From Torpedo marmorata (taxonomy: Eukaryota): DNA of 64,000 bases. The notes under the pieces were generated by a model. The model made no database searches and had not been told where the DNA came from. It saw only the letters and a program-made list of their open reading frames with translations. Location: NCBI GenBank assembly GCA_977017645.1, contig OZ360237.1, forward strand, positions 39,060,001 to 39,124,000, in the 5' to 3' direction. This document shows positions 5,280 through 62,390 of this stretch, piece after piece. The position numbers were made by a program, and so were the translations under genes. How positions within the stretch are numbered: the first letter of the stretch is position 1; each line of letters starts with the position of its first letter.

Positions 5280-7866
5280 TCACCCGACAGTGAAAAAAAA
5301 CCTTCCTACCTCTATCCTATCCATCCCCTTAATAATTCTATATGTTTCTATAAGATCTCCTCTCATTCTTCTGAACTCGAGCGAGTATAATCCAAGACGA
5401 TTTAATCTTTCATCATAGGTCAACCCCTTCATCTCAGGGATCAACCTAGTAAACCTCATCTGGACAGCCTCCAAGGCCAGTATATCCTTCCTCAAATATG
5501 GAGACCAGAACTGCACACAGTACTCCAGGTGCGGTCTCACCAGTACCTTGTACAGTTGCAACATTACCTCCTTGCTCCTGAATTCAATTCCTCTAGCGAT
5601 GAAGGCCAACATTCCATTTGCCTTCTTAATAACCTGCTGCACCTGTAACCCAACTTTTTACGATTCGTGCACAAGCACTCCCAAGTCCTTCTGCACAACA
5701 GCATGCTGCAGTTTTTCACCATTTAAATAATACTCTGCTCTTTTATTTTTCTTGCCAAAGTGGATAACCTCACACTTACTAACATTGTACTCCAACTGCC
5801 AGACCTTTGCCCACTCACCTAACTTAACTATATCCCTCTGCAGCCTCTCCACATCCTCAGTACAATTTGCTCTTTCACTCAATTTAGTATCATCCGCAAA
5901 CTTGGCTACACCACATTTTGTCCCCTCCTCCAAATCATCAATGTAAATGATGAACAGTTGTGGGCTCAGCACTGACCCCTGCGGCACCCCACTTACCACT
6001 GTCTGCCAATCAGAAAAACACCCATTTATCCTGACTCTCTGCCTCCAACCAATCCTCAATCCATAGCAATATACTTCCCTAGACTCCATTCACCTGTAAC
6101 TTACTGATAAGTCTCTTGTGCGGCACCTTATCAAACGCTTTCTGGAAATCCAAATATACAACATCAACCTGTTCCCCTCTATCTACCGCACCCTTTGTGT
6201 CCTCAAAGAACTCTAACAAGTTTGTCAAACAAGATCTGCCCTTCCTAAACCCATGCTGCGTCTGCCTGATTGAACCCTTTCGTTCTAAATGTCTCACTAT
6301 TTCATCCTTAATGACAGCTTCAAGCATTTTCCCAACTACAGACGTTAAGCTAATTGGCCGATAGTTCCCAGTCTTCTTCCTACATCTCTTCTTAAAAAGT
6401 GGCGTGACATTTGCTGTCTTCCAATCTGCCGGGACCTGCCCAGAATCCAGAGAATTTTGGTATATGACCACCAATGCATCGACTATAACTTCTGCCATTT
6501 CCCTCAGAACCCTGGGATGCATTTCATCAGGACTAGGGGATTTGTCTGGCTTTAGTCCCATTAGTTTGTTCATCACTATCTCCTCAGTAACAACTATTTT
6601 ATCAAGGCCTTCACCAACATTCGCATTCCTATCTCCAATCTTTGGCATGCTGGACGTGTCTTCCACCGTGAAGACTGACACAAAATATTTGTTCAAGGCC
6701 TCGGCCATTTCCTCATTATTCAATATCAATTTCCCCTTCTCATCATCCAAGGGTCCTATGTTAACTCTAGCCACCCTCTTCCGTTTTATATATTTATAAA
6801 AATTTTTGCTATCTGTTTTTATATTTTGTGCCAATTTACCTTCATAATCCTTTCTCCCCTTTCTTATTACCCGCTTTGTTGTCCCTTGTTGTCTTTTAAA
6901 GTTTTCCCAATCTTCCAGTTTCCCATTACTCTTTGCAACTTTGTACACCTGAGCTTTTAATTTTATACTCTCCTTTATTTCCTTAGTTAACCACGGCTGA
7001 CTCTTCCCTCTCTTGCTGCCCTTATTCTTAACTGGAATATATTTTTGTTGAGCATTGTGAAAAATCTCCTTGAAAATCTTCCACTGTTCCTCAACTGTTC
7101 TACCAACTAGCCTGTGCTCCCAGTCCACGCTGACCAATTCCTCCCTCATCCTGTGATAGTCTCCCCTGTTTAAGCATAATACATTAGTTTTAGATCTAAC
7201 TATTTCCCCTTCCATCTGAATGAGAAATTCAATCATACTATGATCGCTATTTCCAAGAGGGTCCCTAACAATTACATCATTTACTCTACCTATCTCATTG
7301 CACAATACTAGATCCAAAATAGCATTCACTCTTGTTGGTTCCTTAACATGCTGCTCAAGAAAGCTATCATGGATGCATTCTATGAAGTCTTCTTCCAGAC
7401 TCCCGCGACCAACTTGATTTTCCCAATCTACGTGGTAGTTAAAGTTCCCCACGACAACTGCCATTCCATTCTTACATGCCTCACTTATCTCTCTGTTTAT
7501 TGCCTGTGACACTGTACTATTGTTATTTGGTGGGCGAGAGACAACACCCACCAGATTTTTCCCCTTTGTTATTCTTAATCTCCACCCAGATGGACTCAAC
7601 ATTATGTTCCTTAGATCTTATATTATCTCTCACTATTCCTTGAACTCATCCTTAATTAAGAGCGCCATACCTCCTCCCTTACCATCCTGTCTATCCTTTC
7701 GCACTACCTGATACCCTTGAAAGTTTAATTCCCAATCATGGTAATCTTGTAGCCATGTTTCTGTGATGGCCACTAAATCATATGCCTGGGTACCGACTTG
7801 CGCCTCAAGTTCACTAACCTTGTTTCTAATATTGCGGGCATTCAGATAAAGTGCCCTTATGCTCAT
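5280..7866 (-). pseudogene. CR1 ORF2 (endonuclease-reverse transcriptase), disrupted
   Basis: Split across ORFs 7633..8019, 6079..7602, 5658..6089, 5280..5642 with canonical APE and RT motifs. Confidence 0.9.
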
Positions 7867-10524: not shown

Positions 10525-11620
10525 GTGCCCCACTCCCATGCTGTCATGTCTGTCCATGGCCTCATGTTCTGTCCAACCAAGACCACCCGTAAATTGGAGA
10601 AGCAACACTTAATTTTCCATCTGGGCACTCTCCAACCAGATGGCATTAACCTCGACTTCTCCGGTTTCTGCAAGCCTACTCTCCGTTCTCCCTTCTGTCC
10701 CATTCCCTTTGTCTTCTTTCCTCCAGCTCTCCACCCGCTTCCCTCTCCATTCACAGAGCCACCCCCCTCACCTTGTTTGCTGGTGGGCCCTCCCTCCCTT
10801 TTTTAAAAAAAATATTTTATTTTAAGATTTTCAACTTTTTCACAATAATACAAAATAATGTAAAATATACATTAAACATCAGTTAAATTCGATACATAGG
10901 AATTTCGTATTACCATGAATCTAACCCCATCTAAACCACCCTTACTAAAACAACCCACCCTCCACCCTTCCCATCCCTTATCCCCCCCCCATACTAGAAC
11001 TAAAAAAGAAAAGAGAAGGGAAAAGAACAATTGAAAATATATCTGTACATATCCATGGCTCGATGCAAGAAATTCAACAATATTCATTCTTCAAATTTAA
11101 ACTTAAGAGAGTCAGCGGGGTCTGGGATGCAGGGCAACATATTTAAATATTCATTCCTGATAATTGGATAAATGGACGCCAAATTTGGAAAAAGAGTCCA
11201 TACTTATTCCTCATATTGTATGTTATTTTTTCCAATGGGATGCAACTCTGCATCTCTGAATTCCATCTACTCATACTCAGATTTGTGTCCGATTTCCAGG
11301 TCACTGCTATACATTTCCTAGCTACTGCTAGTGCAATTTTTATGAATTTTAATTGCCATATGGATAATTTTGTGTCCTCCCTCCCTTATCCACCTATTAC
11401 CTCCTGCCTGTGGGACTGTGCTCCTGCCCCTGCCTCTCACCCCATTTTGTTTGGGCGCCTGCCCACATTTTGTCCATAACTTGATGAAGGGCTCAAGCCC
11501 GAAATGTTGGTGATGTATCTTTATCTTTCCTATCTAAAGTACACTGTCTGACCTGCTGAATTTCTCCAGCATTGTGTTTTTACTTCAACCATGGTGTCTG
11601 CAGACTTTTGTGTTTTACTC
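10525..11620 (+). mobile_element. PLE 3' fragment (GIY-YIG end, 3' UTR, hammerhead, terminus), split by an L1 insertion
   Basis: MSVHGL...RKLEKQHLIFHLGTLQPDGINLDF; ttgatgaagggctcaagcccgaaa at 11481; terminus tctgcagacttttgtgttttact. Confidence 0.85.
10801..11370 (-). mobile_element. L1/Tx1-like 3' fragment with TSD cctccctccctt
   Basis: Poly(A)-signal-like tttatt and T-run at 10801-10822; minus-strand C-terminal L1-like coding remnant; 12-bp direct repeat at 10789-10800 and 11376-11387. Confidence 0.7.
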
Positions 11621-15419: not shown

Positions 15420-16159
15420 TAATTTGGCATGAGCAGCAAATGCTGACCTTGCCCATGATGCTCCAGATGGTGAATGAGTAAAAGCATTTCCATGGCACCA
15501 AAGAATAGCAATAGAAATGGTTAGTGGTCATATTAAATCTGCATTGCTGAGAGTTATTCCCATAGTTTTAACTATCCTTCAGGAATGAGGTTTTCTTTGG
15601 CTGTGGAAGGGGTGAGACAACAGTTCAGAGTAACAAAGTCAACTTCATCTGTGCAACACCCTCCCATGTAGTTCAAGTACTTACCATTTTTTAAATAAAC
15701 TCTTAACTGTCGGTGGGAATCATTGGAAAAGTGGCATGTAAAGAAATTAAACTGCAGTAATTTTATAGTTCCCATTGATATGGTTAAAAAAAAAAGCCGT
15801 TTATGTGCCTTTCATCTAATGTGAACAAGCTATGGATGACTGGAAAACACAAATCATATGAATGAGGAAATCAGTTTTGAGCCAGATTGCTGAGAGATCA
15901 TGAGTTTCAGTTCGAAAACATGCCAGGATGAATTTCAAAAGTTATTCATTTCTGAGCTGTGTTAACCTTAGAGTTACAAGGGGGGAATTTTTCATTCATT
16001 AACATGAAGAAACAGTAAAAAAACAAGTAAAGGTACATCATTGTAAATGCAGACGGATACTGGGCTGAGTTTTGATCTGCAATTCTGATCAGCCCCACCA
16101 GCATTCAGCAACACGAACAGGGCTTCCACACACATACCGCCACATCTGCATACTTGACA

Positions 16160-16375
16160 CAGTTAATGGTTAGCACAACACTATTACAGTGCCAGCGACC
16201 CGGGTTTCAATTCGGCACTGTCTGTGAGAAGTTTGTATGTTCTCCCCGTCTGCATGAGTTTCCACTGGGTGAGCTGGTTTCCTCCCACCCTTCAAAATGT
16301 ACAGGTTTGTAGGTTAATTGGGGTATTTGGGCGGCACGGGCTTGTGGGCCGGAAGGGCCTGTTACTGTGCTGTAT
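16160..16375 (+). mobile_element. V-SINE whose tail is split by a PLE insertion (tail resumes at 18801-18830)
   Basis: SINE core then gttactgtgctgtat | PLE | tactgagctgtatgtctaaatttaaa. Confidence 0.85.
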
Positions 16376-16445
16376 TAAAAAAACACAAATGCTGGAGAAA
16401 CTCAGCAGGTCAAACAGTGTCTTTTATGTAGCAAAGGCAGAAATA

Positions 16446-16486
16446 CATAACCGACGTTTCGGGCTTGAGCCCTTCATCAAAGTATG
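16446..16486 (-). ncRNA. Minimal type I hammerhead ribozyme motif in PLE terminus
   Basis: CAUACU-UUGAUGA-A-GGGC(UCAA)GCCC-GAAA-CG-UC-GGUUAUG: core boxes, 4-bp stem II, palindromic ACGU stem III, bulged stem I. Confidence 0.75.
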
Positions 16487-16669
16487 AGAAAATGCTGGCA
16501 GGCGTCCGAACAAAAGAGTGAGGGGGGGGGGGTGGCAAAGGCAGGAGATGATAGGTGGAGAAAGGAGGGAGGGGACAGCAGCAAAGAGGGGGAGGAGGGA
16601 TGGCTGGGTGGGTGGGAAACAAACAGGAAGGACAGGTGAGGGGGGAGGGGAAAGAAACGACAAGCAGGT

Positions 16670-18720
16670 TTAGTGGAAAGCAGAAAAGTCAATGTTAATG
16701 CCATCTGGCTGGAGAGTGCCCAGACGGAAAATGAGATGTTGTTCCTCCAATTTGCGAGTAGTCTGGGTGGGATAGTACATAAGGCCATGGACAGACATGT
16801 GAGTGTGGGAGTGTGACCTGGAATTGAAATGGTTGGCTACTGGGAGGTCGCTGTTGTTGCGGACGGAGAGGAGGTGCTCAGCAAAGCGGTCTCCCAATCT
16901 ACGACCGGTCTCTCCAATGTAGAGAAAGCCACAAAGGGAGCACCGGATGCAGTAAATAAGTTCTCTGGATGTACAAGTGAAGTGTAGTTTCACTTGGAAG
17001 GCCTGTTTGGGGCCCTGGACCGTGGTGAGGGGGGAGGTGTGGGCGCAGATGTTGCACCTCCTGCGGGCACAGGGGAAGGTGCCGGGGGTGCGATGGGTGG
17101 GGAGGGATGAGTGCACGAGGGAATCGCAGAGGGAGCGGTCCATACGGAAGGCCGAGAGGGGAGGAGAAGGAAAAATGTGTCTGGTGGTGGGATCCTGTAG
17201 TAAGTGCCGGAAATTCCAGCGGATAATGTGTTGGATGCGGGAGGCTGGTGGGGTGGTAGGTGAGGACAAGGGGGATTCTATGTTTGTTGCGTCTGGGGGC
17301 AGAGGGGGCCAGGGCAGATGAGCGGGAAATGGAGGAGATACGGGTGAGGGCTGAGTTGATGGTGGTGGAGGGGGAGCCACGTTTGTGGAAGAAGGCAGAC
17401 ATTTCAGAAGATCTGGACTGGAACACCTCATCTTGGGAACAGATGCGGCGGAGACGGAGAAATTGAGAGAAGGGGATGGAATCCTTGCAGGGGACAGGGT
17501 GTGAGGAAGTGTAGTCCAGATAGTTGTGGGAGTTGGAGGGTTTGTAGTAAATGTCGGTGGAAAGCTTGTCTCCTGAGATGGAGACAGAGAGATCCAGGAA
17601 GGGGAGAGTGTTATCGGAGATGGACCAGGTGAGTTTGAGATCGTGGTGGAAGTTGGATGCGAAGTGGATGAAGTTGACAAGCTCATCGCGGGTGCATGAG
17701 GCAGCCCCAATGTAGTCGTCGATATAACGGAGGAAGAAATGAGGGGTCTTGCCTTTGTAGGTTTGCAGCATGGATTGCTCCACAAAGCCCACAAACAGGC
17801 AGGCGTAGCTGGGACCCATGCGGGTACCCATGGCTACTCCTTTGATTTGGAGGAAGTGGGATGAGTTGAAGGAGAAGTTATTGAGAGTGAGGACAAGTTC
17901 TGCCAGGCAGAGGAGGGTGGAGGTAGAGGGTGACTGGTCGGGTCTTTGGTCCAGGAAGAAGCGAATTGCTTTCAGACCTTCTGTGTGGGGGATAAAGGTA
18001 TAAAGGGATTTGACATCCATGGTGAAGATGATGCGGTCCGGTTCAGGGAATCTGAAGTCATTGAGGAGATGGAGGGCATGTGAGGTGTCGCAGATGTAGG
18101 TGGGGAGGGATTGGACCAGGGGAGAAAAGATGGAGTCAAGGTAAGATGAAACTATTTCGGTGGGGCAGGAGCAGGCAGAAACAATGGGTCTGCCCGGATG
18201 GTTGGGTTTGTGTATCTTGGGTAGAATGTAGAAACGGGCAATGCGGGGGTGGGGGAGAATGAGGTTGGTGGCCGTGGAGGGGAGGTGACCTCAGGTGATG
18301 AGGTCGGAGATGGTGTTGGAGACAGTGGCTTGATGTGCAGTGGTGGGGTCCTGTGGGAGGGGTCGGTAGGAGGAGGTGTCTGAGAGCTGTTGACTGGCCT
18401 CGGCAAGGTAGAGGTCAGTGCGCCAGACCACAACCGCCCCGCCCTTGTCTGTGGGTTTGATGGTGAGGTTGGGATTGTTGCGGAGAGAGTGGAGGGCAGA
18501 GCGTTCTGAGGAGGTGAGGTTGGAATACGAGAGGGGGGTGGTGAAGTTGAGACGGTTGGAAATAAAAAGGTCCAGAGCGGGGAGCTGGCCAGGACAAGGT
18601 GTCCAGGAAGAGGAAGAAGGCTTGAAGCGGGAGAAAGGGTTTTGGGTGGGGGGTGGAGAGTCACGGTCATGGAAGTGAGCTCGGAGGCGGAAGCGACTGA
18701 AGAAGAGTTCAGCATCGCGC
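16670..18720 (-). pseudogene. PLE RT-GIY-YIG polyprotein ORF, 5' truncated and frameshifted near 17240
   Basis: RT in ORF 16899..18020, endonuclease in ORF 16670..17794. Confidence 0.85.
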
Positions 18721-18728
18721 CATGTGCG

Positions 18729-18800
18729 GATTTTCGTGTTTTACTTCTGAACTACAGATTTTCGTGTTTTACTTCTGAACTACAGATTTTCGTGTTTTAC
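18729..18800 (+). repeat. About 2.6 tandem copies of a 28-bp unit derived from the PLE extreme terminus
   Basis: Unit ctacagattttcgtgttttacttctgaa; matches terminus tctacagattttcgtgatttact at 29126-29148. Confidence 0.9.
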
Positions 18801-19219
18801 TACTGAGCTGTATGTCTAAATTTAAAATTTACTGCATGATTTGAAGCCGAATTTGCTTGATTGCTCCTCCCTCGACTCGGGTGCCCAAAGGTGGAGCCCA
18901 ATCTTACTGGGATTCTCTTGAATCTAGCTCCCTCTAGACTTGGCAGGTAATTTTAAATCCCAATAATTTCCACTGGGAAAGTCAACAAAGAGGAAAGTTG
19001 TTCTAGTTTCCTTTAATATTTTTAATTTGTTATGTGTTTAAGCTTATTTTAATCTCAATTATGATTTACTTCTTATATTAGCAGCTTTTGAATGTCACTG
19101 AAACAATTTAAAACTACTTTGAACGATTATGGCTGGCAATAGGTGGGGCTTTGCCAGCTCTCAAAGACTGTTGGGATTATTTTGGGGGAAGGCCTCATCA
19201 CTACAATCCATTGCCTTCT

Positions 19220-19839
19220 TGTTGTGTGGGAAGGGAAACAAGTTTGATGGGTTCAAAGAGCAATGAGTCTGGACACAGGGTGAATACAGGTAGGACCTTT
19301 ATTAAAACACACGTAAGGGGATCACAGCAAGGAAAACACACACTTGTACTCTTAATCACACAACACAGTCTAATCAGTCACATTGGACTTAATACTACCA
19401 ATACTAGCAACTGTGAACACTTATAACAACCAAGGATTACTATACGCTACCTGCCAGTCCTTGTCTAATGTGGGCACGGCTCCAATGCTATCTACATCAC
19501 TAATGTACAACAGCCCCGATCCCTACGTAGTACACACCTTACCAATGACTCTTTTAGCGTTGTCCACAGTTCACGGCCTGGAGTGGAACAGGGTTCATCT
19601 CAGGACCGAAGAGCAGAAAGAGAATGAGCTACTGTAAGTGGTGGACTTTATAGTACAGTCAGCTGGAGGGTCCAGCCCAGGTAATCACTAGGTGCACTAA
19701 TGGGTGGGCAGAGTCCAACCTTGATTGGCAGGTGATGCGACTTCCGACTAGGTTCCAGACAGAGAGGCCACATGACCCTCCACAATCCCACCAGGTTCCA
19801 GACAAAGAGGTCACATGACCCTCCACAATCCACACTACA
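19220..19839 (-). mobile_element. Solo LTR of an LTR retrotransposon (Gypsy/BEL-like)
   Basis: Ends TGTTGTGTGG...CCACACTACA (9/10 inverted), 5-bp flanks cttct/cttgt, minus-strand TATAAA (~19647) then AATAAA (~19298), internal ~42-bp tandem duplication. Confidence 0.7.
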
Positions 19840-60659: not shown

Positions 60660-62390
60660 GCCTTGAATCCTCGTTTCAACCCCATCTAAGCTGGTTTCAG
60701 GCTGGTAAGCTCCTTACTAGACAGAGACAGATACACGCCAGCTATGGCAGGGAGTGCAGGCCATTACAGCCTACAAAGCGAGGGCGAACACTATAGACAG
60801 CTGTGATGCTTCACTACCCGATGAGCTGAACACCTTCTATGTCCGCTTTTGAGGACCCTGTGATATCTGCCTCTGAGGGTGACGTCAGAACATCATTCGC
60901 AAGGCGTCATGCCCTTACGGCGCACCTGGCAGGGTACTGAAAATCTGTGCCAACCAACTAGCCGGAGTGTTCACGGACATTTTCAACCTCTCATTGCGGC
61001 AGTTAGAGGTTCCCACCTGCTTCAAAAGGGCATCAATCATCCCGGTACCCTAGAAGAGTAGAGTGAGCTGCCTCAACGACTACCGCCCAGTAGCACTAAC
61101 ATCTACTGTGATGAAATGCTTTGAGAGGCTGGTCATGGCCAGAATTAACACATACCTAAGCAAAGATCTGGACCCAATGCAATTCGCCTATCGTCACAAC
61201 CACTCCACAGCAGATGCAATATCACTGGCTCTCCACTCAGCTCTGGATCACCTCGAAAACAGCAATTCATACATAAGGCTGCTCTTCGTCGACTACAGCT
61301 CGGCCTTCAATACCATTATTCCCTCAGTGCTGGTCAAGAAGCTACAAACTCTAGGCCTCTGTGTACCCCCCTCTGCAACTGGATCCTTGACTTTCTCATC
61401 GGAAGACCACAGTCAGTACGAATTGGAAACAACGTCTCCACCTCACTGATTATCAACACAGGCGCACCCCAAGGATGCGTACTTAGCCCACTGCTCTACT
61501 TGTTACACATCCATGACTGTGTGGCCAGGCACAATTCCAATGCCATCTACAAGTTTGCTGATGACATCACAGTTGTCGGCAGAATCACAAACGGCAATGA
61601 GGAAGCGTACAGGAGGGAGATAGATCAGCTCGTTGAATGGTGTAACGACAACAACCTTGCGCTCAACGTCAGAAAAACCAAGGAGATGATCGTGGACTTC
61701 AGGAGGAAGTCAGGGGAACACGACCCAGTCCTCATCGAGGGCTCAGTAGTGGAGAGGGTCAAGAACTTCAAATTCCTTGGTGTCAACATCTCCGAGGATC
61801 AGTCCTGTAGCCTCCACGTTGATGCAATCACAAAGAAGGCTCGCCAGTGGGTATACTTTGTGAGGTGTCTGAGGAGATTCAGTATGTCACCGAAGACTCT
61901 CGTAAACTTCTACAGGTGTACCATGGAGAGCATTCTGGCTGGTTGCATCACTGCCTGGTATGGAGGCGCCAACTCTCAGGACAAAAATAAACTCCAGAGG
62001 GTTGTTAACTCGGCCTGTGACATCACAGGCACCAGACTTCACTCCATCGAGGACATCTACACGAGACGGTATCTTAAAAAAGCAGCCTCTGTCCTCAAAG
62101 ACCCCCACCACCCAGGCCATGCCCTCTTCACTCTGTTACCATCGGGAAAAAGGTACAGGAGCCTAAAGTCGAGCACTCAACGGCACAAGGACAGCTTCTT
62201 CCCAGCTGCCATCAGATTCCTGAATAATTCAATGAACCAAAGACACTGACTTACTTTTTGTGCACTATTATTTATATTTTTTTATAGTAATGTCGTAAGA
62301 TGGTAATAATATGAATGTTTGCACTATGATGCTGCCGCAAAACACCGAATTTCATGACTTGTTCATGACAATAAATTCTGATGATTCTGT
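60660..62390 (+). mobile_element. Rex1/Babar LINE, 5'-truncated, frameshifted RT
   Basis: [69 protein letters not shown]; gacaataaattctga tail. Confidence 0.92.

Follow-up and report, generated by a model that had tools for sequence, protein, structure and literature searches.

Stacked terminal tails at Penelope-like element insertions in Torpedo marmorata and their probable origin by repeated jumping on a short RNA

A 28-bp tandem repeat was found at the truncated end of a Penelope-like element (PLE) in a 64,000-nt stretch of the Torpedo marmorata genome (GCA_977017645.1, OZ360237.1, positions 39,060,001–39,124,000, forward strand), hereafter the window. Tandem Repeats Finder placed it at 18729–18806 with a period of 28 and 2.8 copies. 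Its units are copies of the terminal tail of the PLE family, stacked at the insertion junction. Such stacked tails are real and recurrent, and are a rare variant of the known insertion behaviour of PLEs. They probably arise when, during insertion, the PLE reverse transcriptase (RT) comes to the end of a short RNA remnant and returns repeatedly to the RNA 3′ end by jumping.

The inserted part of the array is 72 nt long (18729–18800), which confirmed the claim of an earlier note on this DNA that about 2.6 tandem 28-bp units lie at the truncated PLE junction. Its plus strand reads tail (16 nt), spacer (7 nt), tail (21 nt), spacer, tail (21 nt). The 16-nt tail core has nine matches in the window at up to two mismatches, against 0.03 expected. 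The units represent the start of the tail, inverted relative to the element body. The same note had taken them for the inverted extreme 3′ terminus of the element; the inverted tail start held good, but the element sequence continues past the tail. Element positions are numbered here in the direction of complementary DNA (cDNA) synthesis, with +1 as the first tail base. Both unit-to-unit junctions are blunt and identical. The insertion interrupts a short interspersed element (SINE) and is bracketed by a 13-bp target site duplication (TSD) with one mismatch, at which the right copy agrees with element base −6, by chance or through a templated change.

The spacer TTCTGAA matched the element sequence beyond the tail of long copies at 7/7 positions and the target at 5/7. 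A genome search with spacer, tail and body returned 668 places, 11 of the 30 examined continuing into the coding part of long elements; for each large search, the first 30 places were examined, mostly on one or a few contigs. Because the spacer lies beyond the tail in long coding copies, it is the element's own −7 to −1. Two further loci, whose targets differ, share exactly this 28-bp junction, giving three unrelated targets in all. A target origin of the spacer, as the earlier note had proposed from its likeness to the TSD, was therefore rejected. Since the spacer is absent from the DNA of the locus, one restart or more must have drawn on element RNA or on a second element copy, and the idea of repeated RNA-templated synthesis is supported. 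The 7-mer precedes 668 of 16,870 single tail-and-body starts (4%), and in several of these 668 it belongs to the target duplication.

The likeness between spacer and TSD has a family-wide cause: target ends at first starts resemble element bases −6 to −1. The last six target bases matched this segment at a mean of 3.3 positions, against 1.6 in nearby DNA (26 ordinary insertions; four of the 30 baseline loci were left out as a read-through, a 7-mer start, a restart and a duplicate). This likeness fits primer–template pairing, and a nuclease preference could also produce it.

The recurrence that the earlier note had asked for was found across the PLE family. Two exact tail starts no more than 32 nt apart gave 69 matches at 41 loci, with none in the control. 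The genome holds 35,942 exact tail starts, so that stacked tails occur at about 0.1% of them, a lower bound. Array units elsewhere measure 28–48 bp and are repeated up to about ten times. At 31 of the 41 loci a restart copied at least 5 bases upstream of +1, most often 6–8. The target bases expected within the tandem units were thus mostly wanting: these 31 loci carry an element-derived spacer, and the target flank is repeated at three (L017, L074, L083), which are DNA-level duplications. A sister tail variant gave eight matches at two loci 23 kb apart on one contig, with a target-like spacer, and was uninformative; the entries L212–L219 (G000:C42, about 13.84–13.86 Mb) form two 39-bp sister-variant arrays sharing a spacer.

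The passes within an array showed a consistent order. Read in the direction of synthesis, they grow shorter before reaching a plateau (for example 774, 58, 46, 20, 20, 20 or 394, 26, 26, 26). Changes between non-final passes comprised 26 decreases and three increases (p = 1.5 × 10−5), and the order was long-to-short at 19 loci and short-to-long at two. The three arrays with target spacers were omitted from this test and kept in the denominator of 41. No increase in length was seen at 16 further loci, used out of an extra set of 19 from which L207, L208 and L159 were removed as chimeric or ambiguous. The variant base at +20 was the same in the first two readable passes at 24 of 25 loci, and the minor G was concordant in 5/5 cases against a background of 6/30; L146 was unreadable, and at two loci the compared passes were of equal length. 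The shrinking passes and the common +20 variant together indicate one RNA shortened from its far end and not a new RNA for each restart.

The junctions have the character of end-to-end jumping, with little homology and extra bases. Restarts at −5 or beyond gave 68 junction types, of which 43 were gapless (22 blunt, 15 with a 1-nt overlap and six with 2–3 nt) and 25 carried extra bases. T accounted for 28 of the 43 extra bases, a few of the others being substitutions; an oligo-A RNA end would template such T-rich additions. The same stop was joined through different junctions at five of the 30 loci with at least two short junctions, which indicates separate jumps.

The two strands of the target were found to use different start sites. 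An inverted partner end was present in the fetched flank of 20 of the 80 distinct +1 starts, and 15 of these partners were tailless. A duplication of about 12–17 bp enclosed 14 of the 15 pairs with a tailless partner and none of the five with a tailed one. In all 14 enclosed pairs the tail stood on one strand only, which indicates that synthesis begins at +1 from one cut strand and at about +37 from the other, the layout also seen in the window. Nicking and extension of both strands have been described in vitro for an Anolis PLE (PMC11167929; this and the other papers cited here were available in part). These results support priming at the second target nick on a terminal template, as the earlier note had suggested.

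Two further observations concern the arms of these insertions. Of the 13 inverted insertions whose first pass is long, six (L075, L078, L084, L089, L203 and L072, compared by eye) have two arms that stop no more than about 10 nt apart on the element (for example 1279 and 1279), and look as if both strands had copied one 5′-broken RNA. At L086, L209 and L200 the array turns back on itself after the last pass, and an inverted copy of it comes next, a signature of hairpin self-priming.

From these data we propose the following course of insertion. Both target strands would be cut 13 bp apart, as the length of the duplication suggests and in keeping with the two-strand nicking described for another PLE (PMC11167929). 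One end would prime the long cDNA at the inner start and the other would prime at +1, in the two-start layout observed. The second primer probably pairs with RNA bases −6 to −1. The RNA left to it would be short, trimmed perhaps by host RNase H or by decay, and copying would end at +21, the stop seen in the array. With no complementary end at hand, synthesis would restart at about −7, the presumed physical end of the RNA, and copy the bases with which the target had only paired, which yields the element-derived spacer. Two such jumps back to the RNA 3′ end would give the three tail copies in the window. The last pass may then anneal to the long cDNA by 2 nt, with repair sealing the join. Some arrays elsewhere later expand as ordinary minisatellites.

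Several points weigh against repeated jumping as the general explanation. At the window locus the junctions are identical, and one RNA jump followed by DNA duplication fits them equally well. Independent junctions are indicated at five of the 30 multi-junction loci and not at the other 25. DNA-level growth does happen: L012, L089 and L091 carry substitutions common to subsets of units, and the three arrays repeating the target flank are of the same nature. The variant switches between passes at L172, and one source copy supplying several RNAs would also give common variants. The RNA 3′ end as restart site is read from DNA junctions and is to that extent presumptive. Pass lengths were entered by hand from a parse in which single substitutions were ignored, and the event is rare. 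The identical junctions and the DNA-level growth lend weight to a mixed origin, in which a single RNA-templated restart made the first 28-bp unit, and the second copy, like most identical units elsewhere, came from later slippage or unequal exchange. Even so the first jump is still required, and the arrangement of two junctions recurs at L200, an independent locus. Several restarts are needed to account for at least three different passes at L100, L078, L082, L205, L209 and L072, and likewise for the five loci with one stop and different junctions. We regard the mixed origin as unlikely.

A repair polymerase might instead have worked at the break, its end copying the target flank or the tail of another copy several times. 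Target-flank spacers in 3/41 arrays and the microhomology at the final join agree with this, but with a donor taken at random from the genome the 7-mer would precede the tail in only about 4% of cases and the copy would not stop at −5 to −9, and ordered shrinking would be unexpected. Such templated insertion is highly improbable. An assembly artefact is barely credible. No contig built from the reads of four runs bridges the array in the window, and one run gave 35- and 39-nt pieces at 100% identity that contain the unit-to-unit junction, too short to bridge the array or to be assigned to the locus, and leaving the left junction uncovered. Against an artefact stand the 41 loci with differing unit lengths and internal substitutions, the clean target duplications, and a spacer that belongs to the family sequence and is not present in the local flank.

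The remaining alternative is true telomerase-type repeat addition, whereby the freshly made 3′ end would pair again with an RNA alignment segment and be lengthened as far as a fixed boundary. The kinship of PLE and telomerase RTs on which the earlier note relied is supported by the available text of PMC8557442 and PMC12632851, and repeat addition is described as requiring a fixed boundary as well as an alignment segment with which to pair anew (PMC12632851, PMC12039810). Suitable A-B-A′ layouts do exist in the template, namely the 9-nt GAAGTAAAA at −3 and +33 and the 5-nt TGTAG at −14 and +17. The former predicts a 35-nt unit, which is present at two of the 41 loci (L102 and L084) and is equally explained by DNA slippage between the two repeats. 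The 30-nt product of TGTAG realignment had no match in the genome search, though the stop that this layout calls for is the one found in the window and stops at +21/+22 recur. The target ends also resemble −6 to −1, as pairing would require, but at restarts the alignment segment serves as template and not for pairing, and 37 of the 43 gapless junction types have 0–1 nt in common. The first short stop per locus is spread from +19 to +38, which is not a fixed 5′ boundary, and the predicted RNA fold around the tail was not unusual (z 0.30). Array synthesis is therefore not the telomerase-type realignment that the earlier note had in mind, and a true repeat-addition cycle is very unlikely.

Repeated jumping, the reading we prefer, still resembles telomerase in that a short RNA is copied more than once onto a single DNA end and, probably, in that the first primer pairs with a 3′ segment. 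The shrinking passes and common variants are compatible with several repeats from one RNA. We speculate further, as a tentative and on balance doubtful idea, that Penelope RT holds a 28–45-nt RNA core with a primer-pairing segment on its 3′ side and recopies it onto one DNA end without release. This crude and boundary-free repeat-addition processivity would be inherited from the common ancestor with telomerase, and the same cycle would build pseudo-long terminal repeats (pseudo-LTRs) and seed tail minisatellites.

The features of the locus are given in Table 1. The element body is 93–95% identical to five long copies and 91–94% to a sixth, and other copies in the window have a 36-nt tail ahead of the body, between the two starts. 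This tail at one end, together with inverted partners, corresponds to the terminal layout of endonuclease-bearing (EN+) PLEs. So does the order of RT and a C-terminal YIG core flanked by cysteines, which was recognised by eye in the frameshifted window copy. Pfam gave no match for the endonuclease frame, a PDB sequence search gave no match, and Rfam, searched at E values up to 5, gave none for the candidate hammerhead segment of Table 1, which has a hammerhead-like core motif. The split SINE is presumably tRNA-derived. A CX2-5CxxC motif between RT and endonuclease marks the Neptune and Nematis clades (PMC8557442), and by its linker motif the window element is a putative Neptune-type Penelope.

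Table 1. Features of the insertion locus, in window positions (position 1 is the first letter)
Feature	Positions	Strand	Basis or remark
SINE 5′ part, split by the PLE	16150..16375	+	left boundary approximate; 3′ motif in 7 other window copies
TSD left copy; putative primer of the long cDNA	16363..16375	+	TSD comparison
PLE body, 5′-truncated, frameshifted; begins at inner start ~+37, without tail at that end	16376..18730	−	
Hammerhead-like motif of pseudo-LTR	16455..16482	−	placement as in PMC11167929
C-x4-C-xx-C linker and GIY-YIG-type endonuclease segment	16670..17200	−	motifs by eye against PMC8557442
RT frame	16899..18290	−	Pfam RVT_1, E 4e-6, 27.1 bits, under curated cut-off 29.6
2-nt microhomology, last tail pass and long cDNA end	18729..18730		
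Third pass, element −7..+16, inverted relative to body	18729..18751	+	
Second pass, element −7..+21, the 28-bp unit	18752..18779	+	
First pass, element +1..+21; probably primed by minus-strand target end	18780..18800	+	
TSD right copy	18801..18813	+	TSD comparison
SINE 3′ remainder	18814..18830	+	

Elsewhere in the window, the present PLE family and its relatives have many more ends, at 11603, 29132, 53723, 57323 and other positions, some nested in each other's pseudo-LTRs. An unrelated 43-bp tandem repeat (2.1 copies) was located at 19743–19831. Two fragments of long interspersed elements (LINEs) were seen, one with endonuclease and RT at 6079–7617 (−) and one with RT and an ALKBH8_N-like domain at 61149–62249 (+).

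The results bear on how Penelope elements form tails, partial tandems and inverted ends (PMC8557442, PMC11167929). They give a genomic record with testable numbers: a first start at +1, primer likeness at −6 to −1, one start site per strand, restarts at −5 to −9, and passes down to about 20–38 nt. The closest eukaryotic relative of telomerase RT would thus re-copy a short terminal template, with neither boundary nor realignment. As an in vitro PLE system exists, whether repeat synthesis predates telomerase is directly testable. Stacked tails may also be one way in which insertion gives rise to minisatellites.

In LINE-1 twin priming, each of the two target strands serves as a primer on the element RNA, leaving an inverted piece within the TSD and a microhomology join. 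The insertions described here likewise have an inverted piece inside the target duplication and a microhomology join, but their second primer has a fixed place to start instead of a random match inside the element, and the product is reiterated. Template jumping is also a property of R2 RT. For group II intron RTs, the accessible text of PMC8363836 describes jumps from one template's 5′ end to a 3′ end with scant pairing and added bases, and serial switches that yield multimers. Those switches were made in vitro between separate RNAs, whereas here there is a genomic record in which one shrinking RNA is indicated. Telomerase, DRT10 and DRT2 (PMC12632851, PMC12039810, as far as available) are similar in that the RT, a related one, makes repeated copies of a short RNA segment on a single DNA end, and in that the primer seems, when synthesis first initiates, to pair with a segment 3′ of the template. 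In contrast, the PLE has no fixed boundary, no A–A′ realignment in most arrays and no dedicated non-coding RNA, and its repeats are rare and not evidently processive.

The literature search found no description of stacked PLE tails, of a restart site 5–9 nt past the start or of shrinking passes; subscription journals (such as the 2005–2008 Penelope structure papers) and bioRxiv supplements lay outside its coverage. A retrozyme preprint (10.64898/2026.07.22.740005) concerns, in its available part, longer hammerhead-bearing units. R1 tandems separated by a target duplication (PMC2718515) resemble the three target-spacer arrays. The Anolis Poseidon element PAc (PMC11167929) shares a 30–40-nt tail between two internal RT starts, with the element continuing beyond; a hammerhead adjoins its tail, as the hammerhead-like motif would here, and both strands are nicked and extended, as proposed for the present family. 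It initiates at RNA non-homologous to the cut DNA, whereas the target ends here resemble −6 to −1 and the present family has the Neptune/Nematis linker motif; the available part of that paper does not describe repeated tail products. Within the group, EN+ PLEs are known to carry tails as well as pseudo-LTRs, partial tandems and inverted copies at the 5′ end (PMC8557442, PMC3846280). Their partial tandems, as described there, also place a longer copy before a shorter one in synthesis order, with an inverted 5′ copy, a tail at either end and a target duplication. The arrays of T. marmorata differ in that the series descends to units of 28–48 bp and that the restart has a defined place, 5–9 nt past the usual start.
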